From the NCBI GenBank assembly GCA_038046625.1, contig JBBSVV010000032.1:1-23064 (forward strand): 23,064 bases of DNA, read 5' to 3'. This document shows positions 3,436-18,656 of the stretch, one piece after another. Position 1 is the stretch's first letter; each line of letters begins with the position of its first letter. Position numbers and translations under genes: made by a program. The notes beneath the pieces were generated by a model. It searched no databases. It was given only the letters and a program-made list of their open reading frames with translations, and was not told the origin of the DNA. Origin of the DNA: an archaeon. Its GTDB lineage: Archaea > Iainarchaeota > Iainarchaeia > Iainarchaeales > Iainarchaeaceae.

Positions 3436-4811
3436 GTTTTCCTGAGGAATTCGGCGTATGAAGCCATTTCCTTCATTGAGCGCGCCGCAATGCTCGGGTA
3501 AGTAAAGGTTGTGAATCCGGCTCTCTCTATTTTTCCCATGTATTTTTCAGTGTAGTCGCTGCCGATTGAAATCACTATTATCGGCTTTGCGAGCTTTTTC
3601 CTCGCGCCCTTGAGTATGCTCAGCTTCTGTGCCTCGATTGCCGGAAGGTTAAACAGGACAAGCACCATTATGATGTCCGCATTTTTGTCGCTTATGGTTG
3701 CCTTGAGTGCCTCCTTGAATCGCGCGACATCCGCATCGCCAATGAGGTCCATGGGGTTTGATATTGTGGCCATGGGCATTTTGTGCCTGAGCTCTGAAAC
3801 CGTTTTTTGCGATAGTTTCGCGAGCCTCAATCCGTTTGCAATCACCTGGTCCGCTGTCACGATTCCAAAGCCGCCTCCGTTGGTTATTATCTGCACGCGA
3901 TTCCCCTTTGGCAGCGGCTCTTTTTCAAGCAGTTTTGCGACGTTGAAAAGCTCGATGAGGTCGTTCACCTGTATTATTCCCGCCTGCTTGAACACGGCAT
4001 CATAAACTTTCGAAGAGCCTGCAAGAGAACCGGTGTGCGAGGCCGTTGCCTTGCTTGTTTCCTCGCTGCGCCCGCCCTTAAGCACTATTATGGGCTTTTG
4101 CCTGGAGACCTTTTTTGCGGTTTCGTAGAATTTCCTGCCGTCGCGCGCACCCTCGAGGTACATTGTAATGACTTTGGTTTTTTTGTCGCGCCCGAAATAT
4201 TCCAATAAATCGGCTTCATCAACGTCCATTGCGTTTCCGTATGAGGCGAACTTGCTTATCCCGAAGTCCTGTGTTGCGACCCAGTCAAGTATCATTGAGC
4301 CAAGCGCCCCGGACTGCGAGATGAATGAAAGGTTCCCTTTTTTTGGCTTCCGCATCCTTTCGCTTGAAAAGAATGTCGTGTCAAGGCCCGAGTGGTTGTT
4401 CATTACGCCCACGCAGTTTGGCCCCATTACCCTTGTGTGCGGGTGCTTCTTTATGAGTTCAGAAATCTGTGCGGTGAGCTTTTTTTCCCCGACTTCGGAG
4501 AAGCCCGCGCTCACTATTATTGCGGCGCCGCATTTTTTTTCCATGCACTCCTCAAGCGCGCTTGGAACGAATTGTGACGGCACCGCTATCACCGCAAGGT
4601 CAATCGGAAAAGGAATGTCCTTTACGGAGGCGTAGGTTTTTTTCCCCTGTATTTTCGCGTGCTTCGGGTTGACGGGGAAAGCTTTTGTACCGTAGATTTT
4701 TGCCACGTTTCCGAATATTGCCGAGCCGACGCTTCCCTTCTGCCCCGAAGCGCCTATCACCGCGACGCTTTTCGGCGAGAAAAACGCGTCAATGCTTTTC
4801 CAGTCCTTCAT
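3432..4811 (-). CDS. acdA: Acetyl-CoA synthetase (ADP-forming) alpha subunit
   Basis: FFSPKSVAVIGAS, GPNCVG, SQSGALG, SHTGSLAG (phospho-His), NPMDLIGDA. True start ATG 4811; the ORF-track extension overlaps the upstream gene. Confidence 0.9.
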   Translation of the reverse strand: MKDWKSIDAFFSPKSVAVIGASGQKGSVGSAIFGNVAKIYGTKAFPVNPKHAKIQGKKTYASVKDIPFPIDLAVIAVPSQFVPSALEECMEKKCGAAIIVSAGFSEVGEKKLTAQISELIKKHPHTRVMGPNCVGVMNNHSGLDTTFFSSERMRKPKKGNLSFISQSGALGSMILDWVATQDFGISKFASYGNAMDVDEADLLEYFGRDKKTKVITMYLEGARDGRKFYETAKKVSRQKPIIVLKGGRSEETSKATASHTGSLAGSSKVYDAVFKQAGIIQVNDLIELFNVAKLLEKEPLPKGNRVQIITNGGGFGIVTADQVIANGLRLAKLSQKTVSELRHKMPMATISNPMDLIGDADVARFKEALKATISDKNADIIMVLVLFNLPAIEAQKLSILKGARKKLAKPIIVISIGSDYTEKYMGKIERAGFTTFTYPSIAARSMKEMASYAEFLRKT

Positions 4812-4846
4812 GGAATAAGGATTGTTTTCTGTTCTTAAAAATGTTT

Positions 4847-5488
4847 CTAGAAATTGCCTATGCATACCTTGCCCACGCAGTGCTGGTGCGGGGGGCATTC
4901 CTTTTCCTGGTATTTGGGGTCGTTCTGGGGGCAGCATTGGGCCTCGCAGGCCGGCTTCACGCATTTTCCGTTCACGCAATCCAGCGTGCCAGAACATGCC
5001 TTGTCCTGTGTTCCGGTTATTCCGGCACAGCACTGGCTTTTGCATGCGTTGAGTTCGCATTTTCCGTTCACGCACTGCATGTTGTTTGCGCATGTTTTTT
5101 CCCCGTAGGCGGAGTTTGCGGCACAGCACTCGCTTTCGCAGGCCGGCTTGACGCATTCGAACCTCTCGCATGCCAATCCGGAGGGGCATTCCTTTCTTTC
5201 AAAGCCCTCGGTTATGCAGCACTCCGCGTCGCACTGCCTCGCAACGCACGCATTGTTCACGCACTCAAGCCTTCCGTCACAGGCTTTTTGCATGAATGTT
5301 CCGTCGGTGCAGCATTCAAAATCGCTTGGGCAGGCGCATTGGCTTAGTGAGCCTGCTTTTGTTCCGTCGGGGCATTTCACGAGCACTTCCCTTGGTTCAA
5401 CTGGCAGGAGCAGTGCTGCGCCAATGCCGAGCAATAGAAGTACGGTGAACACTATTGCCGCGAGGTTGCTTGTCATGCGCAGGTTCAT
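4847..5488 (-). CDS. Membrane-anchored cysteine-rich repeat protein
   Basis: N-terminal hydrophobic helix (LAAIVFTVLLLLGIGAALLL), a CPDG motif, then five ~31-34 aa repeats with six Cys each. Confidence 0.8.
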   Translation of the reverse strand: MNLRMTSNLAAIVFTVLLLLGIGAALLLPVEPREVLVKCPDGTKAGSLSQCACPSDFECCTDGTFMQKACDGRLECVNNACVARQCDAECCITEGFERKECPSGLACERFECVKPACESECCAANSAYGEKTCANNMQCVNGKCELNACKSQCCAGITGTQDKACSGTLDCVNGKCVKPACEAQCCPQNDPKYQEKECPPHQHCVGKVCIGNF

Positions 5489-5564
5489 GCCTTTCACTTT
5501 TACCGGCCGTAAATTATATCAAAAGACATTAATTTTTGAAACTTTTTTAGTGTCTTTCGATATT

Positions 5565-5753
5565 ATTTGTGGATTCGGCTTGATAAGCATTGCCTCAACA
5601 GTTTCGTCCGAGAGTGCGCCTACCCTGACGGGCACAGGTCGGAAGGGCGCCAAGATTGTTGGGTGCGAGTGCCATCTTCGTTGGACTCGATGGCAAGAAC
5701 TGCACTGCCGGAGGCGTGCGCCCCCACCCCCAACGCGGGCTTGCGTTGCTCGC
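5565..5753 (+). ncRNA. Structured intergenic element A (unknown family)
   Basis: Shares 5665-5748 with element B with compensatory changes, and GATTCGGCTTG with element C; long stem CTCAACAGTTT/AGATTGTTGGG with three G-U pairs on +. Confidence 0.6.
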
Positions 5754-6848
5754 TTACGGCAGGAAGTCCTCTTCCTTTATTTTTTTGGGAACGTAAGTTT
5801 CCGTGATGAACCTTATTCCTTTTTTTGAGAGTGCTTCGAGCTCCAGCTTGTATGCCTTTTCCCGCATGTTGTTGAATTCCTGTTTCCATTCCTTTTTCTG
5901 GAACCACTCGTAGCCCTCCATTTCCTTGAGGCGCTTCACGTCCAATTGGTTCAATTTGATTGTGACTTCCTTGGGTATCTTGAATTTTTCAACATCCATT
6001 GTTGTGAGGCCGATGAATTGCGCCGAAGGCGTCGCAAGCTTTTCCTCGGAGTATGACAGGCTTATCGAGCCCTGCTTTATTACGGAGTAAATGTACATTC
6101 CCCAGGGGTCCGCATCAGTGAGCACGTATATGGGCAACTTGAATTCCTTTACCAGGCGCTGTGCCATCCTTCTTTCTCCGCGTCCGGGCTGTCCCCTTCC
6201 TGTGAGTATTATGCATTTTTGTTTTTTCCAGAACTGGTCCTCGTTGAAGCGCCTCCAAACCGCGTCCTTCTCTATGAAGAGGATGTATTCGGCGTTGACT
6301 TTCTTGAATTCAATCCTGTCGGGTTCAACATTGCTCGGAACGCTCCACCCTCCGGAACCCATTTTTGTGAGATCTATGTTTACCCCGCCGTCCCTCAATT
6401 GCACGTCGCCCGCGATTATTCCCTTTGCGGAGGCCGCGAGATGCAGTTCTTCCCTGAGCAAATCCAGTGAGGCCTCGATGTCCTCAATGCATGGGTCGGA
6501 TTCCGACTGTTCCTCGAAAGTGTTTTCGTTCGTGCCCTCGATTGTGTGCTTGAGCGCGTAGTAAAGGTCACGGATGCTCACGGTGGCCTGCTGTTCAATC
6601 ACATTTCTTATTTCCGACGCAACCAAAAGTGTCTGCATGAATTTCTTGGAGTGCGCGACGTTCAGGAACTGCCTTTCGGACACCTTGTCCCCGAGCTTTA
6701 TTGTGCCGCTTTTTTTGTCAAAGAAAACGTTGTTCAGTGTCCTCACGGGCACCTCATAAGTCGGATTCTGGCTTTTGTCTATCTGCCTGTAGATTGCCTC
6801 GCCGATGCTTTCAAGCTTTTTTTGCACTTCCTTGTCCCTTCCAGCCAT
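5754..6848 (-). CDS. top6A: DNA topoisomerase VI subunit A
   Basis: SIRDLYY (catalytic Tyr), IEKDA, DADPWG TOPRIM motifs, KLELEAL. Confidence 0.96.
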   Translation of the reverse strand: MAGRDKEVQKKLESIGEAIYRQIDKSQNPTYEVPVRTLNNVFFDKKSGTIKLGDKVSERQFLNVAHSKKFMQTLLVASEIRNVIEQQATVSIRDLYYALKHTIEGTNENTFEEQSESDPCIEDIEASLDLLREELHLAASAKGIIAGDVQLRDGGVNIDLTKMGSGGWSVPSNVEPDRIEFKKVNAEYILFIEKDAVWRRFNEDQFWKKQKCIILTGRGQPGRGERRMAQRLVKEFKLPIYVLTDADPWGMYIYSVIKQGSISLSYSEEKLATPSAQFIGLTTMDVEKFKIPKEVTIKLNQLDVKRLKEMEGYEWFQKKEWKQEFNNMREKAYKLELEALSKKGIRFITETYVPKKIKEEDFLP

Positions 6849-6850
6849 TT

Positions 6851-8620
6851 TCACTCACTCTCCTCTTCTTCAATGGGCTCTTTCTTTCCCCCGTCCTTTC
6901 CCTTTGCGGTTTCTTTTTTTTCCTTTTCCATTTTTTTCTCGTAAGCCTTCTCTATTTCCTCTTCGCTTGCCTCGCCCTTTGCATCCGCCTCTTTTTCCTT
7001 CTGCTCCTCGAGCTTTAGGTGTTTCAAAACGAGCGCGTGCAGCTTGTCCTCGACCTGCTTTTTTGGCTTCTGCGCGAGTTCCGAAACCGCATACGCGACT
7101 TCTGATGCGTATTTGTAGAACATTTTCCTCTTAGCTTCCTTTTCCGCCTGCCTCTTCTGGCGCCCGATGAAAGTGTAAATTTTTCTTCCAGTGTCCATCA
7201 AAGCGAGGCGGAGTTCCTCCATTATTTCGTCCTCATCGCTGATTGCCTGCTTTCCTGCCGAAGTGTAGGGAATGTGCACTGAAATCAGGTTCACGAAAAC
7301 CGTCAATGGCGCGCTCTCCAGGTCCTTTATTCCGTACCTTTTCCAGTCAATGGACTGAACGGCCTTTGTTATTGCGCATGCCCCGGTATCAAAAAGCAAT
7401 GGTGTTCTGTTTGCGAACCTCATTATTTCCACTTTTCTTTCCTGCCGGCCTTCCTCATTTACAATGCCGGTTTTCCCGGCGTTGCCTCCGAATGCTATGC
7501 CGACCTCGACCTGGAATGGGAAGCCGCCCTTGTAAACGCTCGGTTTTCTTGTTACGACAGAAAGGAATTCCGGAACCACGATGCTTGAGAGGCTCTTCTT
7601 TATTCTTTCCTCGCCGATTGACCTCAGGCCGTCTGTCCTCGGCGCAATGAAGCTGATTTTTTTGAATTGGCCGATTATTTCCTCGGATTCCTCCCAAGTG
7701 AGTTGCCTAGGGTCCTTCCTCAGGTCAAATGAAACGTTTTTCGTGATTTCCTCAACGGCCTTGTCCCCGAGCCTGTCGAGTTCGCTTTTCAAAAAGCTTG
7801 AAACCTGCCTCGCCTTGGTGTATTTTGCGAGCGTGCTGAGTTCATCCACCGTAATGCCTTTCGGGTGCGGCTTTATTTCCAGTGGCTTTGCGGGAATTTC
7901 TTTTAAGGTTCTTTTGAAAACTATTTTGTTTCCGCTCGGCTCTATAAGTGTAATCTGTGCGTGCGGGTTTGCAATCGCGGTCCTCCTCAAATATTCAAGC
8001 GGCGCCTGTTCCGAGTTAACGTACTTCACGTCCTTGAACTTGGCCCTGATTACAGTTCCCTTGAACTCCTTTTTGAGTTCCGTGAGGTTGGAGATTTTTG
8101 CCTCGTTCTTTTTCGGGTCGATTGTTATTTCCAGGCTGATTGGCGCGTGCTTTCCCGTTCCGGTAATGACCTGCGTGGCTTTTCCCGTTGTGATTTGTGA
8201 AAGCATTGTGCATCCCGCGGCGCCGATTCCCTGCTGTCCGCGCATCTGCATCATCCTGTGGAATTTTGTTCCCGCAAGCAGCTGCCCGAGGGCTTTTCCG
8301 ACTGTTTCCTTTGTGAGGCCGGGGCCGTTGTCCTTTGCCGTAATCTCGTAATACTCGTTGCCCAGTTCCTTTACCTGGACCTCAATGTCGGGCAGTATTT
8401 TTGCCTCTTCGCACGCATCCAGCGAATTGGTGACGTACTCGTGCACAATTGTTGTCAGGGTCTTGATTTTTCCCGTTAACCCCAGCATCTGCATGTTTTT
8501 TTTGAAGAATTCTGCGACGGAATGTTCCTTGAATTCTGTTGCTATTTCTTCCGCGCTTGTTCCTTTGAGCTGTGCGCTTTCCGCTTCCGTTTCTTCATGT
8601 TCTTCATTTTCTTTCGCCAT
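6851..8620 (-). CDS. top6B: DNA topoisomerase VI subunit B
   Basis: SVAEFF, HEYVTNSLDACEE, DNGPG, RGQQGIG GHKL motifs; RFANRTPLL, YTSAGKQ. Confidence 0.96.
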   Translation of the reverse strand: MAKENEEHEETEAESAQLKGTSAEEIATEFKEHSVAEFFKKNMQMLGLTGKIKTLTTIVHEYVTNSLDACEEAKILPDIEVQVKELGNEYYEITAKDNGPGLTKETVGKALGQLLAGTKFHRMMQMRGQQGIGAAGCTMLSQITTGKATQVITGTGKHAPISLEITIDPKKNEAKISNLTELKKEFKGTVIRAKFKDVKYVNSEQAPLEYLRRTAIANPHAQITLIEPSGNKIVFKRTLKEIPAKPLEIKPHPKGITVDELSTLAKYTKARQVSSFLKSELDRLGDKAVEEITKNVSFDLRKDPRQLTWEESEEIIGQFKKISFIAPRTDGLRSIGEERIKKSLSSIVVPEFLSVVTRKPSVYKGGFPFQVEVGIAFGGNAGKTGIVNEEGRQERKVEIMRFANRTPLLFDTGACAITKAVQSIDWKRYGIKDLESAPLTVFVNLISVHIPYTSAGKQAISDEDEIMEELRLALMDTGRKIYTFIGRQKRQAEKEAKRKMFYKYASEVAYAVSELAQKPKKQVEDKLHALVLKHLKLEEQKEKEADAKGEASEEEIEKAYEKKMEKEKKETAKGKDGGKKEPIEEEESE

Positions 8621-8630
8621 AAACAAAACC

Positions 8631-9164
8631 TCACAATTCAAATCTTCCGCCGGAACCGCGTCTCTTCAGCACGTCATAAACGTGCGTGTGGGAGGCGCCC
8701 TTCAAAAGCATTTCAACCGCCCTCAGGGCCTTTGAAATTTCTTCCTCCGTGCCGATTATTGAAATTGTTTTCCCGTAAACCGAAATCAGTGCTCCCGTGT
8801 CCTGCTCAATTTCATTCCTTGCTTTTCCCCTTGTCCCTATTACGCGGCCTTTTTTTGCCTTCATTGTGCCCTCGCTTTTTCCGAAGAATTCCCGCAAATC
8901 AATTATTTGGAGCATCACGTCATCCTGGGAAAGCCTTGATGCGTGCTGCGGCGAGAATCCCCGCGCGATTGCCTTGACAATGCTCATTGCCTTCAGGTAC
9001 TTCAATGGGTTTCCTTTCTGGATTACTTCAACTTCCCCCTCACGGCTGTCAACGACCAGTTTGGTTTCCGTGAGCCTCTCTATTTTGCGTTTTGTCGCGC
9101 CTTTTTTTCCAATCAGGGCGCCAACCCTGTCGTGCGGCATCAGGAGAAATTCCGAAGAATCCAT
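8631..9164 (-). CDS. KH-domain pre-rRNA processing protein (Dim2/Pno1-like)
   Basis: Two KH GxxG motifs (LIGKKG, VIGTRG), AIARGFS, GASHTHVY; conserved position next to RIO1. Confidence 0.9.
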   Translation of the reverse strand: MDSSEFLLMPHDRVGALIGKKGATKRKIERLTETKLVVDSREGEVEVIQKGNPLKYLKAMSIVKAIARGFSPQHASRLSQDDVMLQIIDLREFFGKSEGTMKAKKGRVIGTRGKARNEIEQDTGALISVYGKTISIIGTEEEISKALRAVEMLLKGASHTHVYDVLKRRGSGGRFEL

Positions 9165-9197
9165 TCAAACTTAATATACTATATATATTATATATTT

Positions 9198-9995
9198 TTA
9201 TATTCGTCCCCGTTTTTTCTCCAGTTCTTCCTTCCTTGCCTTAACAGCCGCGTACATGCCCTCAAAGCCCGTTTCCAGCCCGTTTTTCGAGAAATAAGAG
9301 GCCATGTTGGTTACATCCCTTTCGAAGAATTCCCTCGCCTTTGGGTGCGTAACGAGAACGGCCTGTGCCATGTCAATGAAAACCAGTTCCTTGTTCCGCA
9401 CCAGAATGTTGTATTCCGACAAATCCGCGTGAATGAGATTCTCGAGGTAAAGCCGCGCAATGAAATCAATTGTCTGCCCGTAATAATTTTTGAGCTCTTT
9501 TTGCGTCGGTTTTGTTTCCCTGAGCTTCGGCGCAGCCTCGTTATTCTCGCCTATGAATTCCATTACGAGCACGTTTTCCATTGAGCCGAGCGGCAGCGGC
9601 GCGCTTAAATGCGCATTCGCGGCAACGGAGAGGTTCTTGAATTCTTTTTTCGCCCATGCAAAAACGAGCTGCCTCCTTTCCTTTTTCAGGTTCTTGAAGC
9701 GTTCATCGCCCTCAATGTACTCGTTCATGCGCTTGAAGTCTGTTGTGAGTGTTTTGTAGATTTTCACTGCGCGCCTGTTGTTGCCCTTGTCCAGCGCAAC
9801 AAAAACGTGCGCCTCTTTTCCAGTGCTTATGATGTGCTCTACAAAATTGAAAAGTTCCTTTGTCGAGAGTGTGTGCAGCGCCTTGAGCGTGCGCTTGTCG
9901 AAAACCTTTTCGAATATTTTCCTGTCGGACTCGTTTTTGAATGTCCTCTCGATTTTCTCGAACTCGAAGCCGTCTTCGGAAAATTCTTCTTGCAT
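9198..9995 (-). CDS. rio1: RIO1 serine kinase
   Basis: STGKEAHVF, AVKIY, WAKKEFKNL, HADLSEYNIL, IDMAQAV; start at ATG 9995. Confidence 0.93.
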   Translation of the reverse strand: MQEEFSEDGFEFEKIERTFKNESDRKIFEKVFDKRTLKALHTLSTKELFNFVEHIISTGKEAHVFVALDKGNNRRAVKIYKTLTTDFKRMNEYIEGDERFKNLKKERRQLVFAWAKKEFKNLSVAANAHLSAPLPLGSMENVLVMEFIGENNEAAPKLRETKPTQKELKNYYGQTIDFIARLYLENLIHADLSEYNILVRNKELVFIDMAQAVLVTHPKAREFFERDVTNMASYFSKNGLETGFEGMYAAVKARKEELEKKRGRI

Positions 9996-10049
9996 AAGAA
10001 TTATGGCAAACCGCGAAAGTTTTTTTGGCTTTTTCCGGCGGTTTGCCAG

Positions 10050-10094
10050 ATAGCAGACCATAAATTTCGCCGAATTATTTTATTGGCCTGCCAT
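10050..10094. repeat. ~45-bp palindromic repeat, copy 1
   Basis: ATAGCAGACCA...TGGCCTGCCAT; reverse complement nearly identical to 12429-12474. Confidence 0.8.
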
Positions 10095-10126
10095 AGCCTT
10101 TGCCCAAACGCGGGAAAAAATTTTTT

Positions 10127-10459
10127 TCAGATGTTGAGCTTGTCCAAAAACCCTTTTCTCTTGAGGTGCTCCATCTGGAAGCCCAAATATCTCCACACTA
10201 TGTCGGCTTTTGACGGCTGAAAATCCCATATCCTGACTATGACCAGGTCATTGTCGCGTATCCACGCGCGTTTCCTCATTTTTCCCGTGATGCGGCAGCT
10301 CCTTTCTAATCCGTCTTCGCACTGCACCTTTATCTGGCTCGCGCCCTGTCTTTGCGTCACAACGCCGAACATTTCGAATTCGTTTCGGTGAGGCAGCCTC
10401 ACCTTTGACATCTGTTCCTGCTGCAGTGCGGCCTTTTCTTCGTCGTCTTTTCTGCCCAA
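10127..10459 (-). CDS. eif1a: Translation initiation factor aIF-1A
   Basis: VRLP, CEDGLERSCRITGKMRKRAWI, WDFQPSKADIVWRY; TTG start. Confidence 0.93.
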   Translation of the reverse strand: MGRKDDEEKAALQQEQMSKVRLPHRNEFEMFGVVTQRQGASQIKVQCEDGLERSCRITGKMRKRAWIRDNDLVIVRIWDFQPSKADIVWRYLGFQMEHLKRKGFLDKLNI

Positions 10460-10463
10460 TTTC

Positions 10464-10754
10464 TCAGACCTTCAGTATTATTGCGTGCAGAACCCCTGCA
10501 ATCTTAATAATGTCGCGTTCACTTAAAAAACCTTGTTTAAGCGCGACTCCTACTGCCTTGCTTCCGAAGAGGTTTATGTTGTTGGCCTGCTTCAAAAGTT
10601 TCGCAAGTTTTTTTTCGCTTGTGAGTTTTCCCTTGTAGAATGATTCTTTTATTGTGACGTCGTAGTTTCCTTCCTTAAGGTTTTTGCCAAGAAGTTCTTT
10701 GTCGCAGCACGCGACAACAAAATTGCCCTGCGTGCTGTATGTGTCGCAATACAA
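10464..10754 (-). CDS. DUF424 family protein
   Basis: VVACCDKELLGK, SFYKG, INLFGSKAV; probable TTG start at 10754 (or 10757). The ORF-track extension runs through element B. Confidence 0.85.
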   Translation of the reverse strand: MYCDTYSTQGNFVVACCDKELLGKNLKEGNYDVTIKESFYKGKLTSEKKLAKLLKQANNINLFGSKAVGVALKQGFLSERDIIKIAGVLHAIILKV

Positions 10755-10757
10755 CAA

Positions 10758-10917
10758 CCCTTTCGCCGGTTCGCCCTGTCGGGTGCAAGGGGAGCGAGTA
10801 CTATCTTCGCTTTTGGGCTCGATAGTAAGATCTGCACTGCCGGAGGTGTGCGCCCACCCCGCCGCGGGCTTGCGGCGTGCGACTATCATCTTCGCTCTTC
10901 GGGCTATCGCTGATAAG
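10758..10917 (+). ncRNA. Structured intergenic element B (unknown family)
   Basis: Contains module M1 (shared with C), M2+M3 (shared with A) and a second M2-like unit (10879-10917). Confidence 0.62.
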
Positions 10918-10946
10918 TGTTTTGAGTAGCCTATTTTGCCCAGCCC

Positions 10947-11351
10947 CTATATTTTCCTGATTGCGCTGATTGCGCCGCACGCCGTGCATTTCAATACCTT
11001 GACTCCGTTCCTTTCAATGATTTGCGTGTCCGGCTTGTGGCACTCGTGGCACAGCACGTATTCCTTCAGATAATTTTCGAAGAGCTTGCTGATTTGGAGC
11101 TGGGGGAATTTTCCGTTCAAAGTGAGTTTTCCCTCGTCCATAATCATTGCGGTCGCGATTTCCTTGGTCAGGAATTTGTAGAAATGCTTGTCTTCTCTCT
11201 GCACAGTTTTCACAGCCTGCGAAAAGTTCCTGATTATTGTCTTGGTTCCCTGTATCTGAACCTCGAGCACAGGCAGTTCAAACCTTTCCTTTGAAACTGT
11301 TTTCTCGGGCAACGAGGAATAAAGGCGCTGGAGCATGTTATCGTAATCCAT
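10947..11351 (-). CDS. eif2b: Translation initiation factor aIF-2 beta
   Basis: MDYDNMLQRLY, ERFELP, KTIIRNF, zinc finger CHECHKPDT...CTACGA. Confidence 0.95.
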   Translation of the reverse strand: MDYDNMLQRLYSSLPEKTVSKERFELPVLEVQIQGTKTIIRNFSQAVKTVQREDKHFYKFLTKEIATAMIMDEGKLTLNGKFPQLQISKLFENYLKEYVLCHECHKPDTQIIERNGVKVLKCTACGAISAIRKI

Positions 11352-11445
11352 ACTAAACCTTGCGCTGTTAAAGGCTTTTAAAGGTTCTTTCCCATTTTTG
11401 TGCCGCAGGATAATGATTAAATACTCCGCATTTTAATATTCTGTC

Positions 11446-11724
11446 ATGCCGCAAAAACGCTCCGAAATCCATCACGGTCTCCCGAAATTCACTTTGTTCG
11501 GCAGGCTTTTCGAGCCGGCAAAGAAGAGGCCGGAAGTTTACCTTATCGAGGGGACAAGGAAATTCCTGAAAGACAAGAACCCGCAGACCGCAAAGGCTTT
11601 CCTGGAGAGGCTGGCTCTCCTTGAAAAGCAAAAGGCTATCAAGCTCAGCGATGGTGAGCGCCACATCGTGAGTGACCTGAAGCTCAGGTGTGACCAGATG
11701 CTCCCGCGCTCAAAGGGCAAATGA
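11446..11724 (+). CDS. Hypothetical basic protein
   Basis: 92-aa ORF with TTAAATA box ~22 nt upstream; no recognisable motif. Confidence 0.6.
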   Translation: MPQKRSEIHHGLPKFTLFGRLFEPAKKRPEVYLIEGTRKFLKDKNPQTAKAFLERLALLEKQKAIKLSDGERHIVSDLKLRCDQMLPRSKGK

Positions 11725-11814
11725 AACCCCCTTGTTGTGCCAACCAGCCTGCAATGCATCCGCTTCCTTGCTGTTTTATTAACCAGTTATTCCCTTTTTT
11801 ATGTCGGTTTTCTG

Positions 11815-12432
11815 ATGGCCCGAGATTTGCGCCACTACAAGGATTACATGGATCAGCAGCCCGTGAACTGGGGGTTCCTGCGCATTGTCCTTGCTATAAT
11901 AATTTTTTTTGTTATTGCGTACTTCATTTCGCAGAACTCGTCAATCATTGCTTATCTCGCAAGTGGTTACGGCCTTTTTGGTTTGTTTGTGGCCGCAATC
12001 ATTGCGAACGCAACGGTTTTTTTCCCTCTCCTGATTGAGCCAATAGTTTTTCTCATAGCCTCTTCCCAACAAAGCCTTGTCTACGCGCTTCTTGTGGGCA
12101 TTGTGATGGGCGCAGGAGCCGCAATAGGCGAAATGACGTCCTATCTTCTCGGTTTGCTGGGAATCGAAGCCATAAAGAAAAAGGGTATTTTCGAGCTCGA
12201 AAAAATCGCGTTCATCCGCGAAAAAATCGAGGACAAGGGCATGGTTTTCATTTACCTTGTTTCGATTATTCCCTTCCCGTTCGACATCATTGGCATAACC
12301 GCGGGCCTCATAAAATACGATTTCAGGAAATTTTTTGTTGCCGCGCTTCTGGGCAAATCTACTAGGTATTTGATAATTGCGCTCGCGGGTTTTTACGGCA
12401 TCGGGATAATAAAATCAATTTTCAACATATAG
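11815..12432 (+). CDS. DedA/VTT-domain (YqaA/TVP38-like) membrane protein
   Basis: Several TM helices, GAAIGEMTSYLLG, IIPFPFDIIGITAG, GKSTRY; probable start ATG 11815. Confidence 0.85.
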   Translation: MARDLRHYKDYMDQQPVNWGFLRIVLAIIIFFVIAYFISQNSSIIAYLASGYGLFGLFVAAIIANATVFFPLLIEPIVFLIASSQQSLVYALLVGIVMGAGAAIGEMTSYLLGLLGIEAIKKKGIFELEKIAFIREKIEDKGMVFIYLVSIIPFPFDIIGITAGLIKYDFRKFFVAALLGKSTRYLIIALAGFYGIGIIKSIFNI

Positions 12433-12519
12433 CAGGCCAATAAAATAATTCGGTGAAGTCTCATGGTCTGCTATCCAGCAGACCCCCATAAATGCCGAAA
12501 AACTTTCATGGTCTGCTAT
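12429..12519. repeat. Two tandem copies of the ~45-bp palindromic repeat between convergent genes
   Basis: ATAGCAGGCCA...TGGTCTGCTAT (12429-12474) and AGCAGACC...TGGTCTGCTAT (12477-12519). Confidence 0.8.
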
Positions 12520-12543
12520 AGCCTGAAAAAATAATTCCGTGTT

Positions 12544-13374
12544 TCAATAGCCTGCTATTTTCGTTATTCCCCACACAATGAGCATCAGAATGACCTGGAA
12601 CGGCAGTGCGGGGAGCGCCCTTCCAGATTTTTTGGAGGCAAAGTCTATGGTGAAAATCAGGCCGATAAGGGAAACAAAGAGCACCAATGCGGGTGAAACG
12701 AAAAAGTAAGGGTATGCAAGCGCGGTTTTCGCCTCGCCGAGAACGCTTACAGCGAACGCGAGCGGAATAATCATGTCGCCGGTTCCAAGTTCAAACTGGT
12801 GCCCTTTTGTGGGCATAGCGTAAGTGAATGAAAGGTTCTTTTTGGTGATTCCTTTTGCCAGGGTAACCATGTGCTTTGTCTTGAACACCGCGATGAAGTC
12901 GTATGCGGAAAGCAGCACCACGAAAACGAGCACGGGCATTACTCCGAGGCTCGCACCTATGAGAGATCCGGCTCCTGCCGCGGCGATGATGCTTGTGATG
13001 TTTCTCAGGATAAGGTTTTTGGAGAAAATTATTCTGAGCGCAACAAGGATCAGCGCGGTTCCGAATATTATTTCATCAGTTGAAATGAACGGCATCAGCA
13101 CTATTATTGCGGTTCCGAATATCGCCATTATTTCAACACCTTTTATGAGAATTGAGAACAGCCAGTCCGGCGCGAATTTTATGAGCACGAGCAAAAATGC
13201 GGTGAAAATAATTATCCACACGAACAGGCCAATGCTGTTGGCGACATCATTCGGGTCATCATTCAAGAGTGTAGTGTGTATGCCCTGATTTATGAGGAAA
13301 TCCCCCACAAGAAGGCCAAGCACCTGCGTGAGCAGGAACAAAAGAACGAGCTGTGCAATGAGGCGCATGTTCAT
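12544..13374 (-). CDS. Presenilin/signal-peptide-peptidase family intramembrane aspartyl protease
   Basis: Multi-TM protein with YD (LSAYDFIAVF), GxGD (LGTGD) and PAL (LPALP) motifs. Confidence 0.92.
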   Translation of the reverse strand: MNMRLIAQLVLLFLLTQVLGLLVGDFLINQGIHTTLLNDDPNDVANSIGLFVWIIIFTAFLLVLIKFAPDWLFSILIKGVEIMAIFGTAIIVLMPFISTDEIIFGTALILVALRIIFSKNLILRNITSIIAAAGAGSLIGASLGVMPVLVFVVLLSAYDFIAVFKTKHMVTLAKGITKKNLSFTYAMPTKGHQFELGTGDMIIPLAFAVSVLGEAKTALAYPYFFVSPALVLFVSLIGLIFTIDFASKKSGRALPALPFQVILMLIVWGITKIAGY

Positions 13375-13406
13375 GGAAACAATTTACGGTTTGCGCTTAT
13401 TTAATC

Positions 13407-14069
13407 CTATTCGAACAGTCTTCTCCCGATGCGGAGAACAGTGGCTCCTTCCTCTATCGCGATTTTGTAGTCGTTGCTCATTCCCATTGAGAGGTGGTGC
13501 AGGTTCAGGTGCTCCTTGATGTCGAAAAGGGTTTTGAAGCAGTTCCTTATTGTTTCCTCGTTTTCCGTGAGCGGCGCCATTGTCATGAGGCCCATGAATT
13601 TCACGTTCCCGTAAGGCAGGTTCTTCATCGTAGTTAAAAGTGATTCAACCTCGTGAGGCGGCATCCCGAATTTCTGTTTTTCCCCGGAAGTGTTCACCTG
13701 CAGGAAGATGTTCTGCACCTTATCCATGTCCAAAGCTGCGTAATGTATTTTCCTGAGCAAATTCAGCGAGTCAACGCTTTGTATGTAGTCCGCCATTTCA
13801 ACGACCGGTTTCACTTTGTTGCTCTGCAGGTGCCCGATGAAGTGTATTTCCGTTTTGAGTTCCTTGAGGTCTGGGTATTTTTCCTCGAGTTCCTGCGCCT
13901 TGCTCTCGCCGATGTCTTCAATGCCGAGAGAAACGATTTCCCTTATTTTCGTCACGGGCTCGTTTTTAGTGACCGCCACGAGAGTTATTTCTTTCGGGTT
14001 GCGCCTCACGCGTGCACAGGTTTGGGCTATTTCTTTTTTCACTGATTCGTAGTTGGACTTGATGCTCAT
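13407..14069 (-). CDS. yggS: YggS/PROSC PLP-binding protein
   Basis: LVAVTK, HFIGHLQSNKVK, QSVDS, GLMTM, LSMGMSND, EEGATVLRIG; start ATG 14069. Confidence 0.93.
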   Translation of the reverse strand: MSIKSNYESVKKEIAQTCARVRRNPKEITLVAVTKNEPVTKIREIVSLGIEDIGESKAQELEEKYPDLKELKTEIHFIGHLQSNKVKPVVEMADYIQSVDSLNLLRKIHYAALDMDKVQNIFLQVNTSGEKQKFGMPPHEVESLLTTMKNLPYGNVKFMGLMTMAPLTENEETIRNCFKTLFDIKEHLNLHHLSMGMSNDYKIAIEEGATVLRIGRRLFE

Positions 14070-14123
14070 GCACAAATTAGGTTTGGGAAAAGTTTTAATT
14101 ACCGCTTTTTGTGTTAAACGCAA

Positions 14124-14324
14124 TTACAGTTTCCTTATTCCGTCGCACATGGGGAATGCCACACATCCCCAGAATTTGCCGTATTTTCCTTCGCGGATTT
14201 TCATTTCTATTCCGCAGTTGGGGCACTTCGGCGCCGAGAACTTTGTTTTGAGGTGCTGTGAGCAGACCGGAATTCCCTTGGAATTGATTTTGGTTGCGGT
14301 GTTCCCGCACTGCGCGCATTTCAT
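14124..14324 (-). CDS. Small zinc-ribbon protein (topoisomerase C4 zinc-finger type)
   Basis: CAQC...CSQH, then CPNCG-x-M-x-IREGKYGKFWGCVAFPMC. Confidence 0.8.
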   Translation of the reverse strand: MKCAQCGNTATKINSKGIPVCSQHLKTKFSAPKCPNCGIEMKIREGKYGKFWGCVAFPMCDGIRKL

Positions 14325-14357
14325 TCGAGACCGTACTTCAGGAATTCCGAAACGTAT

Positions 14358-17300
14358 TTATTTTGAATCCTGTGGTTTGTAAAACCCGTTCTTTGGGGAG
14401 TAAATGTCACCGGCCTTATGCAATTTTTCAAGCAAATCGCGGGCCTTGTCCTTTTCTATTCCGAGCGTTTTTGCCTCGCCGATTATTTCCTCGATGGAAA
14501 TCATGTCGACTTCCTTTGCCTTCTCCCTGATTAATCCCAAAATTTTCTTGAGGTTTGAGAGCGTTGTGTGCGTTTGGCCGGAAGTAATGATGTCGATGTC
14601 GATTTTTCCGGTTTCGGGGTCGGTGACAAGGTCCTGCAGCGATGTTTTTACCAGCCTTATCGCCCTTTCAACGTCGTTCCTTTCAACCGCGTCGCTGAGC
14701 CTTACGCGCGCGCTCGCTTCGGACAATCTTATTATTCCCTCCAATTGTCGATGCGTTGCCGCATATGCGCCCTCCTTTCTTCCCTGGTCGCGCAATGCAA
14801 TGTAAAAATCTGATATTTCCTTCATTGACTCGTCCGTCATTATGGGGAATATTTTTTGGCGCGCGTATGAAATGAATTTTTTGAGGAGCTCTCCGCTGAT
14901 TTTCGGCGTGATTAATTCTTCGAGCTTTTCGAGCTCCACGCTTTTTTTTCCGCCGCCTTTCTTGAGCCTCTGCAGGTTCATTTCCCCGGCCCTGTGGCTC
15001 TTGATTATGTGGTCCGCAATCTCCTGGTCTTTTGTCCTGTCAAGGACATCCCGGATCATGAAGAACAGGTCGAACCTGCTTATGAGTGTTGCCGGCAAAT
15101 TGATTTGTTCTATGAATGGCTGGTAAGGGTCGAACCTTGAGTATTTGGGATTTGCGGCCGCAAGTACTGTTGTGTCGGCCTTGAATTTCGCTATGATTCC
15201 TGCTTTTGCCACGGAAACGGTATTGTGTAGCACGACACCTGCTGATATGAAGGTATGTGTCGGCTCTATTGTGACGTCATAAACCCATTTTGAGTCCTTG
15301 TTCTCTATTTTTTTGATTTCGGTAATTTCAAGGAACTTGATCGGAGAGTCTATAAGTCCAGCTATAGATTGTACTTTTTTTCCAAGGGCAAAGATTTTTT
15401 CCCTGGCCATTTTTTCGGCTGTTTCAAGCAGTTCGCCGTGTTTGGATGAGCGGTTCCTTTCAATGTAAGTTATGGCGCTTGGCGAAAGCCCCATTCTTTG
15501 TGAAATGTCGTTCAGGCTGATATGAGATGCTTTCCTTATTTCTCGCGGGTCTTCGGAACCAAGTGCTTTTTCCGCAGAATCGAGTTTGTTTTGGGCTTTT
15601 GATAAGTATTTTAGCACCGTGTTTGCTTCCGCATTATGGTTTTTCTTTGCATGGCTGAAAAAATACCCGCCGCTTATCCCTATTTCCTTGAGTATTCCAT
15701 TGATTTGCCTCACTATTTGTGGCGGAAGCAGCCTTCTGGAGCTTTCCCTGTTCCCGCTCCTCAGGATAAATTTCCCTATTTTTTCTTTTCTCCTGTCTGT
15801 GGGCGATACAACTATTTGCCTGAATTTTTCCATGTTTTGGGTTCCTGAAACAACAACTTTGTGATAGGGGCCTCTTTGCTCCGTTGCAATGTACGAAAAT
15901 ACGCCAATCTGCAGCAGCATGTCCTGGTAATCGCAGGCGAGCCCGTAGGAAGCGGTAGCGTAACCGATTCTTTCGCTGTCCACAAAACCGTCTCCGCTGA
16001 ATGCCGCTTGGAGGAAATTTTTGATTGTTTCCAGCTCAGCCTGCTTGATCTTGTTTGGCGCCCTTTTCTGCCTCGCCTTTGCAAGTATTTCCGTAAAGTT
16101 TTTCTCAAAAAACCTGTAGAGGGGCTTTGAAGCCATTCTTATTGTTGTGAGGTCTTTGGTGGCTTTTTCCCTTCTCTCCGCCTTTGCTATGCTGGTGTTG
16201 AGCCTGCCATGGAAACTGCTAGTGAAAGCGCTTTCCATGTCGCGCAGTATTTCCGGGTCCGTGTTGCTCACGCCTATTTCGGCATACCTGTTTTCATGGC
16301 TTATGTATGAGTGCCCCTCGCTCGCCACGTAACCCAACAGCCTGCCCACGCTCGGATTCATTGAAGCCGGCAGTTCGAGTTGTTTCCTCGTCATTTCCAC
16401 ATTCGAATCTAATTGCACGGGCGCCTTTTTTGTTTCATAAATGCCCACTCCGGGTGCAACCACTCCGGGTTCGGCTTTTTCCGCGGCCACTTCCTCAAAG
16501 CCGTGTTCGCCAAAAATGTAAAGTGGGTGCTCGGGCGTGACAGTTATTTTTCTTCCGTTCGAATATGTCACTTCAATGAAGTGGCTTGGCGCAATGTGCC
16601 TGCTCACCCTGTCGGCCTTCACCGAAAACATTTCCTTGAAGTCCGTGCTCAGCACCTCAATATTTTCAACCGGCAGTATCTGGCAATCCTTGCCGTCAAT
16701 TATTTTGCCGCCGTTTTCCTCCATGAGCGTATCAACGAGTTCCCCTATTTTTTTTGTCGAGCCGTCCGCAAGCATTATTTCAAAATCCTTGTGGTAGGAT
16801 TGCTGCTCGAGCGCCTCGTGCATTGCGCTCCTGTCTTCCGGCTCCATTTTGTCGAATTCATCCACCATTACCATTCCGCCTGAAGCGAGAACAAGCGCGC
16901 CTGCTTTTAGTGTCCAGCCTCCTTCCCCGAATTCATCTTTCACGGCTGTTGCGGAAAGGCCTGCTCCTGAAGCCGATTTTCCCGCGACGTAAATCGATTT
17001 CGGCGCTATGGCATCAGTTGCCTTCAAAATCGCGCTTTTGGCCATTCCCGGATCTCCTACCAAGAGTATGTGTATGTTTCCCCTTACCTGCTGGGCGTTG
17101 GGCAAAAGTTTTTTCACTCCGCCGAACAATTGGAGCGCGATTGATTCCTTCATTATTTCGTGGCCGTAAATGTGCGGCGCAATGCTCTGTATGAGCTGTT
17201 CATAAACGTCATCGCGCTTCGCGAGCTTGATTATTTCTTCCTCCTCTTCCTTTGATATTTCGACTTCCTCGAATTCTTTTGCGGTTTCCTCGATGTGAAT

Positions 17301-18047
17301 CGCCTCGAGATACCTGCCGTAAACGATTTTCTTTTCCTTTGGCGGCGAGAGCCTTATTATTCCGGTTATTCTTGTCCTGTCCCCCGGCGCGGCTTTATTC
17401 ACGTTGTCATCGCTCACGTAAATGTCGAGGTTGATTGCCTGTTCGCTTCCCTTTATTGCTTCAAGCGGTTCCTGTATCTGTATTTTCTGGTAATCGACAA
17501 AATCGCTTGTTTCCTCATCAAGGTTGAATGTCCTGTTCTTGCATTCGCTGCACATTGAAGGCGTCTTGGGCAACAGGTTCTTGGTCTGCGGAACCTTGTA
17601 GGTTGCGTCACAGCGCGTGCAGTGCCAGGTCGCGGACTTTAATTTCGGCAGCACGTCCGTGACCTGCCTTATTACGCCCTCGACGCTGATGAGTTTTCCT
17701 ATGTGCGAGGAACTGATGTCCATGAGAAGCGGCTGTTTTTCTTCGGGCAGGTTGAATACGCGTATGTGCGGGGAAAAATCCTCGACCTCGAGCATTGGGA
17801 CATCAATGTTCTTGATTGCTAATTGTGCCGCCTCGAGGCAGACGTCAGGATTAACCAGCAGTTCGTCCGCGAGCTCGAAATCATAGTGCTCGAGTTCCTT
17901 GAAATCGACAAAGAGGCTTCTTTTTTGTGGGTATTCACCCACGAGGCGCTCTATATCTTTCATGCACCTGTTCTTCAGGAACAATTCGAATTTCTCGACA
18001 AAGGGATTGTCCTCGCGCACCTTCTCCTCGTACATGCTTTTCCCCAC
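14358..18047 (-). CDS. mcm: MCM replicative helicase, intein-containing
   Basis: Zn finger CTRC/CSEC, Walker A GDPGMAKS, Walker B VDEFDKM, AAANP, SRFDL Arg finger, RQLEG, C-terminal wHTH. Start GTG 18047 or ATG 18035. Confidence 0.96.
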   Translation of the reverse strand: MGKSMYEEKVREDNPFVEKFELFLKNRCMKDIERLVGEYPQKRSLFVDFKELEHYDFELADELLVNPDVCLEAAQLAIKNIDVPMLEVEDFSPHIRVFNLPEEKQPLLMDISSSHIGKLISVEGVIRQVTDVLPKLKSATWHCTRCDATYKVPQTKNLLPKTPSMCSECKNRTFNLDEETSDFVDYQKIQIQEPLEAIKGSEQAINLDIYVSDDNVNKAAPGDRTRITGIIRLSPPKEKKIVYGRYLEAIHIEETAKEFEEVEISKEEEEEIIKLAKRDDVYEQLIQSIAPHIYGHEIMKESIALQLFGGVKKLLPNAQQVRGNIHILLVGDPGMAKSAILKATDAIAPKSIYVAGKSASGAGLSATAVKDEFGEGGWTLKAGALVLASGGMVMVDEFDKMEPEDRSAMHEALEQQSYHKDFEIMLADGSTKKIGELVDTLMEENGGKIIDGKDCQILPVENIEVLSTDFKEMFSVKADRVSRHIAPSHFIEVTYSNGRKITVTPEHPLYIFGEHGFEEVAAEKAEPGVVAPGVGIYETKKAPVQLDSNVEMTRKQLELPASMNPSVGRLLGYVASEGHSYISHENRYAEIGVSNTDPEILRDMESAFTSSFHGRLNTSIAKAERREKATKDLTTIRMASKPLYRFFEKNFTEILAKARQKRAPNKIKQAELETIKNFLQAAFSGDGFVDSERIGYATASYGLACDYQDMLLQIGVFSYIATEQRGPYHKVVVSGTQNMEKFRQIVVSPTDRRKEKIGKFILRSGNRESSRRLLPPQIVRQINGILKEIGISGGYFFSHAKKNHNAEANTVLKYLSKAQNKLDSAEKALGSEDPREIRKASHISLNDISQRMGLSPSAITYIERNRSSKHGELLETAEKMAREKIFALGKKVQSIAGLIDSPIKFLEITEIKKIENKDSKWVYDVTIEPTHTFISAGVVLHNTVSVAKAGIIAKFKADTTVLAAANPKYSRFDPYQPFIEQINLPATLISRFDLFFMIRDVLDRTKDQEIADHIIKSHRAGEMNLQRLKKGGGKKSVELEKLEELITPKISGELLKKFISYARQKIFPIMTDESMKEISDFYIALRDQGRKEGAYAATHRQLEGIIRLSEASARVRLSDAVERNDVERAIRLVKTSLQDLVTDPETGKIDIDIITSGQTHTTLSNLKKILGLIREKAKEVDMISIEEIIGEAKTLGIEKDKARDLLEKLHKAGDIYSPKNGFYKPQDSK
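15222..16799 (-). mobile_element. 526-aa intein with LAGLIDADG homing endonuclease in MCM
   Basis: Inserted at HEALEQQ|TVSVAKAG; begins SYHKDFEIMLADG, block B TVTPEHP, LLGYVASEG and FLQAAFSGDG endonuclease motifs, ends VYDVTIEPTHTF...VLHN, +1 Thr. Confidence 0.93.
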
Positions 18048-18081
18048 TAAACACTGTTTTTTCGGCCTTTAAAAACGCTCT

Positions 18082-18323
18082 GAGGGCTGGTTGCCGCTGC
18101 GCGCAATCCTTTCGCCGGTTCGCCCTATATAGCGGGTGCAAGGGGAGCGACAGCCCCTGCTTTGCAGGGCCTTGGTCCCGCAACAGCGGGACAATAACTA
18201 TCGCACCGCGAGCCAGCGGCTGGAAAGCACCCCACCTTCACCCCCCTTAGGGGCTCGATAGGTCTTGCTTGCGCAACACAGCCTCTGAAGCAGTTGTTCT
18301 CTGATTGTCTTAGATTCGGCTTG
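18082..18323 (+). ncRNA. Structured intergenic element C (unknown family)
   Basis: Enclosing stem GGCTG-GTTGC...GCAAC-A-CAGCC; module M1 (18108-18150); hairpins CCCTGC/GCAGGG and GTCCCGC/GCGGGAC; CTATCG/CGATAG; GATTCGGCTTG shared with A. Confidence 0.6.
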
Positions 18324-18587
18324 TCCCACCAAGAATAAGCCAAAACCCGTTATTGGATTCGCATTGGGTAATTTTCTATAACAAGTACCCCTCTGAACTA
18401 ATTAAGGGCTCTTCCTTAGGTTTCGGAACTTTTTTGCGGAAAAAAATCAGGAAACTGAATCAGGGGCGCATAAGTTTTGGTTTTCATGCCTGCTGTGAGA
18501 ACGCATCCACTATGTTTTTTCCCAGGCACTTTTTGCGGGAAAAACCAATTATATTCCTTTCAGCATTTTTGTTGCGGCCCAGTTGCC

Positions 18588-18656
18588 TTTAAATAAATTC
18601 TAAGGTTCTATTATAATGAATATATATTAAATTCTATTAACTCTGCAGAGGTGAAG
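18588..18656 (+). promoter_or_regulatory. AT-rich promoter region and GAGGTGA RBS for metG
   Basis: TTTAAATA, TTATAA and TATATATTAA boxes, then GAGGTGA 7 nt before ATG 18662. Confidence 0.55.

Follow-up and report, generated by a model that had tools for sequence, protein, structure and literature searches.

Hairpin-forming repeats at gene junctions of an Iainarchaeaceae genome are probably small non-coding insertion elements

Introduction

The REP, BIME and REPIN repeats of bacteria are mobilised by RAYT, a Y1 transposase whose gene is usually single-copy and flanked by the repeats. We compared these repeats, and other described hairpin systems, with three GC-rich intergenic stretches (A, B and C) in a 23,064-nucleotide (nt) piece of archaeal DNA from the family Iainarchaeaceae (GenBank assembly GCA_038046625.1, contig JBBSVV010000032.1), which is referred to below as the window. 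With C-numbers for contigs, the window is C32:1-23064 of the source genome (G000), an assembly of 986 kb in 57 contigs with ~48% GC and 84.6% completeness. A lies in the spacer between top6A and an open reading frame (ORF) of 216 aa, B in the spacer between aIF2beta and a DUF424 gene, and C in the spacer of the divergent genes mcm and metG. A sequence-only reading had taken them for an undescribed family of structured RNAs; its observations that all three are oriented alike and raised in GC (~55-59% versus ~48% genome-wide) were borne out.

In behaviour, the closest described systems appear to be the GC clusters and double-hairpin elements of mitochondria, a group defined by behaviour and not by homology, among which the double-hairpin elements of Allomyces (Paquin 2000) are reportedly named. 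In the accounts of yeast GC42 (PMC4478555) and sponge RHE (PMC2800124), these are hairpins that exceed their compact host genome in GC, with merger and shuffling of units, rapid gain and loss and a double-hairpin module. Their changes are concentrated in loops or compensated in stems, there is no transposase of their own and the mechanism is unknown or disputed; the archaeal elements seem to behave in a similar manner. The likeness to REP, BIME and REPIN (PMC12306157) lies in short GC-rich imperfect palindromes that are present in tens of copies, sit at gene junctions and form mosaics. They also share a constant short sequence at the foot of a hairpin, and both may be handled as single-stranded hairpins. 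[quoted passage not shown] Integron attC sites, finally, share a hairpin that is defined by structure, varies in sequence and is read as single-stranded DNA.

We consider it probable that A, B and C belong, in part as composites, to one undescribed, lineage-specific family of small non-coding hairpin-forming insertion elements, and thus that they are selfish DNA and not dedicated RNAs. The copies are dispersed, have been gained, lost and rebuilt between two congeneric genomes, lie flush with gene boundaries and keep their stems paired through compensatory change.

Results

Gain, loss and rebuilding between two congeneric genomes

The comparison genome (G001, below the sister genome) belongs to a sister species of the same genus and is collinear with the window at 94-98% identity. 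The spacer between aIF2beta and the DUF424 gene, where B lies, measures 195 nt in the source genome and 11 nt in the sister genome. Of 18 relatives that have both genes, 17 show a spacer of no more than 32 nt and one shows 78 nt, so that B is a clean insertion of ~184 nt (10755-~10939) directly before the TTG start of the DUF424 gene. At A, 153 nt of the source genome correspond to 12 nt in the sister genome, which are half of a hairpin seen whole elsewhere. The sister genome has this half hairpin and also a hairpin module (M3b, see below) beside the top6A stop codon; the A site was already occupied and later rebuilt. Site C is filled in both genomes, which differ there by a clean indel of a 22-nt mini-hairpin, a compensatory swap at a hairpin tip and a replaced 3' part; the mcm-metG spacer was measurable in 11 family genomes and is ~400 nt long in 5 of them, as compared with 651 nt in the source genome, which makes C a genus-level insertion. 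The boundaries first drawn for the three stretches were moved accordingly, the insert at A to 5576-5728 (the hairpin at 5729-5753 is common to the sister genome), B to 10755-~10939 and the start of C to 18104.

Further sites gave a similar mixture. The copies at C3:38253 and C3:47882 are absent from the sister genome and are flanked in the source genome by duplications of ~40 and ~19 nt, respectively; that at C3:50721 lies inside a continuous match of the two genomes, and the site at C7:24804, just past a tRNA, is filled in both with different modules. Altogether, of 7 assessable sites 3 are empty in the sister genome, 1 is mostly empty and 3 are filled, two of the latter with differing modules. 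Next to B, the last 11-12 nt of aIF2beta recur in diverged form at a distance of 5 nt, with original and copy both on one side of B; we could not fit this repetition to a target duplication. Contigs of public runs stop inside A (5625), B (10781) and C (18088-18116, one run) and yielded no usable presence/absence variants.

At C3:38150-38480 the element follows the first 40 nt of a gene, and a second copy of these 40 nt restarts the gene. The upstream copy together with the preceding 70 nt is identical to the sister genome, and the downstream, functional copy shows 7 differences, all of them synonymous. The surrounding matches, at 86-90%, fall far short of this local identity to the sister genome.

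A constant 5' module and exchangeable hairpins

Read from the copies, the constant 5' module consists of hairpin H1 (CAAC-NN-TTTCGNC-NN-GTTG) followed by GGGWGCGA. One or more exchangeable hairpins (P2/P3, H2, M3a/M3b) come after it. The commonest after H1 is P2, with a loop that is usually TTCG-like; P2 is followed by CTTGGC and then by another hairpin or by GCTCGC-NNN-GCTCGC, and the commonest forms of the element end at GCTCGC or GATAGTAAG. H2, the module first described as M2, is restricted to the genus (10 copies in the source genome, 3 in the sister genome, 0 in the other 21 family genomes), and M3b is a second H1-like hairpin (CAAC..GTTG+TGCGAG) with H2 again after it.

Three smaller modules, namely a mini-hairpin of 18-22 nt, an insert of ~48 nt and a double hairpin of ~50 nt, are nested in the loops of larger ones, and it is this nesting that gives the elements their mosaic look. 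In M1, a mini-hairpin of 18-22 nt interrupts H1 and linker between GGTT and GGGAGCGA; at C13:14443 and C9:4259, H1 and linker are without such an interruption. The part of A that had been labelled X is a 48-nt insert in the H1 loop with a nested 19-nt hairpin of its own, and the copy at C3:50721 is without those 19 nt. The double hairpin, composed of CCTTGTACCC..GGGTACGAGG plus CCTCGCAG..CTGCAAGG, is hosted by H2, by P2 loops (at CT^TCG), by the M3a loop and by two unrelated AT-rich repeat families; with hosts so varied, single linkage merges everything into one network. A tandem array in the sister genome (G001:C40:35500-35900) holds a 19-nt H1/linker piece plus H2 twice, which occurs once in its counterpart in the source genome (C3:15-128, C28:7438). 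The parts of A, B and C are as follows.

5576..5595 (+), 5' tail of A, 20 nt; absent from the sister genome; resembles the loop of a long hairpin that is whole at C51:28820-28870
5596..5669 (+), H1 of A; 5' arm CAACAGTTTCGTC, 3' arm plus linker TGTTGGGTGCGAG
5609-5656, nested insert X, which splits H1 of A; inner 19-nt hairpin at 5621-5639
5670..5697 (+), H2 (M2) of A; arms TGCCATC / GATGGCA; both variable stem positions compensatory relative to B
5701..5723 (+), M3a of A; GCAC..GTGC with GGAGG in the loop
5729..5753 (+), M3b at A; CAACGC-GGGCTT-GCGTTG, then GCTCGC; abuts the top6A stop (5754-5756, minus); present in the sister genome
10755..10798 (+), M1 of B; H1 at 10755-10771, 18-nt mini-hairpin at 10772-10789, linker GGGAGCGAG
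10799..10883 (+), B; H2 at 10799-10829, M3a at 10833-10855, M3b at 10860-10883
10884..10939 (+), B; degenerate second H2-like unit at 10884-10917 and a 22-nt non-repeated tail
18104..18150 (+), C; H1 at 18104-18120, 22-nt mini-hairpin at 18121-18142 (absent from the sister genome), linker GGGAGCGA
18153..18192 (+), C; P2 (GCCCCTGC-TTT-GCAGGGC) and P3 (GTCCCGC-AACA-GCGGGAC)
18193..18265 (+), C; H2-like hairpin with inserts; tip swapped in a compensatory manner relative to the sister genome (CCCC..GGGG versus GTGCC..GGTAC)
18266..18330 (+), variable 3' part of C; unalignable with the sister genome; holds the second M4 copy at 18313-18323

The H1 region of A has a 94% identical copy at C49:20426-20513 and a 99% identical copy at another locus of the sister genome, both at sites unlinked to A. 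A covariance model of H1, linker and P2 (CM R1, trained on 16 copies) matched A at 5596-5698 (E 1.5e-4) and C at 18104-18180 (E 2.4e-8); B fell below its threshold (E<=0.01). In this genus, no cassette follows H1 more often than the combination of P2 and P3 seen in C. The 5' end of B lies directly beside the TTG start codon of the DUF424 gene (10752-10754, minus). Within B, the minus strand has an ATG at 10889 from which 46 codons run in frame with DUF424 (10464-10889); the start supported by homology is the TTG at 10754, in contact with the CAAC end of B.

Most of the module sharing proposed by the sequence-only reading was reproduced. B and C share M1, with 87% identity over 47 nt between 10755-10797 and 18104-18150 (E 1e-9 for the whole genome); A and B share M2+M3, with 80.7% identity over 88 nt between 5661-5745 and 10790-10874 (E 3e-16); and a second M2-like unit is present in B (10874-10902 against 10789-10817, 76%). 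The M2-like GGGCTCGATAG at 18251-18261 is the right arm of an M2-type hairpin, the ortholog of which in the sister genome still folds as a hairpin. M4 did not survive as a module: the 11-mer occurs exactly at 5572 and 18313 but nowhere else in the genome, it is missing from all of the other ~35 elements, and at A its first 4 nt are flank conserved in the sister genome.

Copy number and phylogenetic range

Self-comparison of the source genome gave a single-linkage network of 147 repeat loci that makes up 1.36% of the genome and occupies 20 of 114 contig ends. In a BLAST search across the genome the modules of A, B and C matched many contigs, often at contig ends, as a dispersed family would. 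CM R1 had 33 matches in the source genome at E<=0.01, including 8 training sequences; with stricter filters there were 28 in the source genome and 33 in the sister genome. The idea of a lineage-specific modular hairpin system thus stands, but that of three special RNAs tied to replication and translation genes does not, A, B and C being 3 of at least 33 dispersed copies.

When 151 genomes of the phylum were sampled, the covariance model matched 42. Within the same family it matched 16 of the 19 genomes sampled, with 1-33 copies each. Elsewhere in the phylum the distribution is patchy: in other families a few genomes had 14, 6, 3 and 2 copies, and there were no matches in 11 sampled genomes from outside the order. 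A 19-nt H1/linker signature was present in 25 of 215 phylum genomes and 16 of 22 family genomes, with 3 matches in total for the reversed control; H1 and linker are kept across genera whose aIF2beta proteins are 57-73% identical. Among the 80 matches listed from a collection of species representatives, 33 came from records with Iainarchaeum, Diapherotrites or 'archaeon' in the title, many of which had more than one match. The remaining 47 of those listed were single bacterial matches (one record with 2), which are at chance level by our own arithmetic (~140 expected). One exact signature match among viral contigs was set aside, as it is below chance level by the same kind of arithmetic. In the literature searched (subscription journals not covered) we found no paper on repeats of Iainarchaeum or Diapherotrites or on hairpin elements of DPANN archaea.

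Stem covariation

The stems of the elements covary, as the sequence-only reading had proposed, and compensatory changes occur across copies in both P2 and H2. In 26 copies of P2, 96.8% of cells are paired and 5 of 6 pairs are altered on both sides. The covariation score of P2 was 0.41 versus 0.138 in shuffles (0 of 500 reached the observed value) and at most 0.139 when partners were slid; since the aligned copies are paralogs, this score does not equal a count of independent events. RNAalifold returned the same P2 helix with two additional outer pairs. In H2 both variable pairs (A-T/G-C and T-A/C-G) are kept in 12 of 13 copies, with one C.A mismatch. The covariation is genuine, and it would arise equally if hairpin formation served the spread of the element itself.

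Neither strand is favoured. P2 cells contain 5 C.A and 2 G.U combinations, which gives no strand asymmetry, and folding z-scores lie between +0.96 and -3.7 in A, B and C and between -0.7 and -2.7 in four typical copies, with similar values on both strands. Stability of the whole element was for that reason discarded as evidence for an RNA. No Rfam family matched the elements at the gathering score in the window, where the only Rfam match was tRNA-Cys at 597-667 (ARAGORN likewise gave tRNA-Cys alone), and nothing meaningful was obtained with A, B and C up to E=10, in line with the sequence-only reading.

Genomic context and candidate enzymes

Placement relative to genes was scored for 38 copies on a crude ORF map. 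Between co-directional genes there were 14 antisense and 4 sense copies, 5 copies lay between divergent genes and 1 between convergent genes; of the remaining 14, 6 were inside a predicted ORF core and 8 beside a contig end. Copies abut stop codons, start codons and tRNA ends at distances of 1-7 nt. An enrichment at tRNA genes was considered and rejected, as the 4 of 35 copies within 150 nt of a tRNA gene are near what the non-coding space would give by our own estimate. A TATA-like motif 15-40 nt upstream of CAAC was seen in 2 of 34 copies.

Y1_Tnp domains were detected in 9 of 23 family genomes, with 7 matches in the sister genome, several of them at contig ends. These belong to a multi-copy IS200-like element, a type that metagenome-assembled genomes often lose. 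The IS200-like elements of the sister genome are ~600 nt long, encode a Y1 transposase of 137-181 aa and have end hairpins CCCACGCC-TAAA-GGCGTGGG and CCCATCTCT-AAA-GAGATGGG.

Comparison with described systems

The defining features of REP/RAYT systems and of MITEs were not found. The many short GC-rich intergenic palindromes that mark REP and REPIN sequences are present (33 matches to the covariance model in 986 kb, with paired stems), but there is no RAYT-like gene flanked by repeats, the Y1 genes of relatives being multi-copy and IS200-like. Unlike in REP sequences, the stems vary here while loops and linkers are conserved, and modules are nested in loops instead of being arranged head-to-head, with long target duplications at some loci. 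Measured against MITEs, a short target duplication of fixed length is missing (A, B and C show none that reaches 9 nt, and two other insertions have ~19 and 40 nt), as is a parent insertion sequence with matching ends, those of the IS200-like elements in the sister genome being unlike the modules. Self-comparison of the source genome showed no multi-copy insertion sequence, of the kind that metagenome assemblies often lose. From mitochondrial GC clusters the elements differ in residing on an archaeal chromosome, in having no sequence relationship to them and in the constant 5' module, which is missing from the mitochondrial units.

We take the ..AAC / GTTGGGT of H1 to resemble the attC cores RYYYAAC / GTTRRRY. 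In contrast to attC sites, H1 is only 18 nt long, there are no cassette arrays, and single copies lie at core-gene junctions in both orientations; an integron integrase was not searched for. The attC reading was rejected on this context. The main text of a paper on archaeal integrons (PMC9668308) contains no mention of Iainarchaeota or Diapherotrites.

Other repeats and genes of the window

Beside A, at 5510-5562, lies a 50-nt AT-rich palindromic repeat with 6 matches elsewhere in the genome; the same site is filled in the sister genome, and on the minus strand the repeat probably holds the promoter of the gene at 4847-5497. This gene (216 aa, without a Pfam match) contains direct repeats with a period of 96 nt at 4932-5291 and overlaps the long reading of a CoA-ligase ORF (3432-5189), the start of which is therefore probably further downstream. 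An inverted pair of a ~95-nt AT-rich repeat (9999-10101 and 12419-12532) encloses 2.3 kb with DUF424, aIF2beta and two further ORFs. This family has at least 20 copies in the source genome and in the sister genome, and its right-hand copy (~12434-12542) is gone from the same site of the sister genome, which has 32 nt instead. Another repeat family, with at least 11 matches, is represented at 649-726, where it begins right beside tRNA-Cys (597-667, minus) and where the sister genome has ~90 extra bases. Near C, just upstream of metG (18597-18648), the sister genome is ~650 nt longer than the source genome, an indel in the opposite direction. The mcm gene (14358-18047, minus; 1229 aa in total) contains an intein with LAGLIDADG and helix-turn-helix domains.

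Discussion

If A, B and C are copies of insertion elements, as we think probable, the elements would spread as DNA through a single-stranded, hairpin-folded intermediate, and an enzyme supplied in trans would recognise the constant H1/linker. Spread would then require the formation of hairpins, which would keep the stems paired, and effects on neighbouring genes, such as new leaders and displaced start signals, would be by-products. A weak candidate for the enzyme is the IS200-like Y1/HUH transposase, which is present in the sister genome and missing from the source assembly (84.6% complete); we treat its link to the elements as a weak hint.

Several results weigh against an insertion element. 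No flanking duplication of 9 nt or more was found at A, B or C, which leaves the arrival of B unexplained, and there are no terminal inverted repeats, the ends CAAC... and ...GCTCGC or ...GATAGTAAG being non-complementary. No mobilising enzyme is linked to the elements: Y1_Tnp, TnpB and reverse transcriptase had no matches in the source genome at its completeness of 84.6%, and across 23 family genomes reverse transcriptase was found in none and Cas1 in one. An element lies near only 1 of 11 Y1 loci, at a distance of 1.6 kb, and no Y1 locus is flanked by elements. At two other loci duplications of 19 and 40 nt were seen, although IS200-type transposases do not duplicate their targets. The end hairpins of the IS200-like copies in the sister genome show no similarity to H1, H2 or P2. 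Covariation of stems among paralogous copies also fits a functional RNA, and the 14:4 antisense skew (two-sided binomial ~0.03 by our own arithmetic on the crude ORF map) could reflect an effect at the RNA level.

We would entertain only tentatively the further proposal that the elements represent a new class of mobile element, in which small hairpin modules with a constant recognition hairpin enter beside or just inside gene starts and each other's loops, leaving duplications that are unusually long and variable (19-40 nt), without a transposase of a known family, reverse transcriptase or Cas1. Such a class would move by way of an unrecognised enzyme or by hairpin-driven template switching, and would, as a side effect, rewrite the leaders, start sites and N-termini that essential genes have in these genome-reduced archaea.

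That the elements are instead functional structured RNAs, or copies domesticated as such, which spread by duplication and are kept for RNA folding, seems to us unlikely. They could possibly act as transcript stabilisers, as processing or termination signals at gene junctions or as translation-coupling spacers. This is where the real compensatory covariation would fit, together with the conservation of H1 and linker across genera with aIF2beta at 57-73% identity, the many loops that read TTCG on the CAAC strand, the 14:4 skew in co-directional pairs, the position of copies exactly at stop codons, start codons and tRNA ends, and the minus strand of B, open in frame with DUF424 from the ATG at 10889. 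Judged as structured RNAs, however, the elements have covariation-backed pairs only as paralogs, no promoter of their own (2 of 34 copies), no fixed orientation, both orientations occurring, and no match to an Rfam family. Folding energies are unremarkable and alike on both strands, and no wobble asymmetry names one strand as an RNA. Congeners differ in whether a given site is filled, and other genera have these sites empty. The earlier view of A, B and C as special RNAs was not supported.

Slightly less likely still is an origin without any dedicated transposase, in which hairpins stall replication and template switching, microhomology-mediated repair or gene conversion copies modules between loci, with shuffling, nesting and variable duplications as the result. 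The mosaic order of modules, the very unequal length of target duplications (~19 and 40 nt), the differing module content of orthologous copies and the lack of a linked enzyme are all what such copying would give, and the 19-nt H1/linker piece flanks H2 on either side at C3:15 and C7:23311 and forms a tandem pair in the sister genome. By our own reading, the mini-hairpin and the H2 core also look like diverged copies of one ~20-nt unit. However, ~35 copies at unlinked sites begin at exactly the same 5' end (CAAC), their 3' ends recur (GCTCGC, GATAGTAAG) and the 19-nt signature is conserved across genera; the shared 5' end and the cross-genus signature argue for sequence-specific recognition and against random switching. 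An artefact of assembly or binning, with chimeric joins at repeats that produce apparent mosaics, is very improbable, for although public-run contigs break off within all three stretches (in C for one run) and repeats hold 20 of the genome's 114 contig ends, an independent run has a contig of 10.6 kb that crosses C with 2 differences, the sister genome has the same families and C at the same site, and the flanks of A and B are collinear with it.

For annotation, the insertion elements that we favour mean that repeats can mimic structured-RNA candidates (high GC, covariation, no Rfam match), and screens for non-coding RNAs should treat them as repeats. DPANN archaea have very small, gene-dense genomes, and yet this lineage tolerates tens of hairpin inserts right up against tRNA ends and against the codons at which essential genes start and stop. 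About half of the assessable sites differ between the two congeneric genomes. If mobile, the elements would be a cheap source of regulatory and coding novelty in these genomes and a marker of recent genome change.

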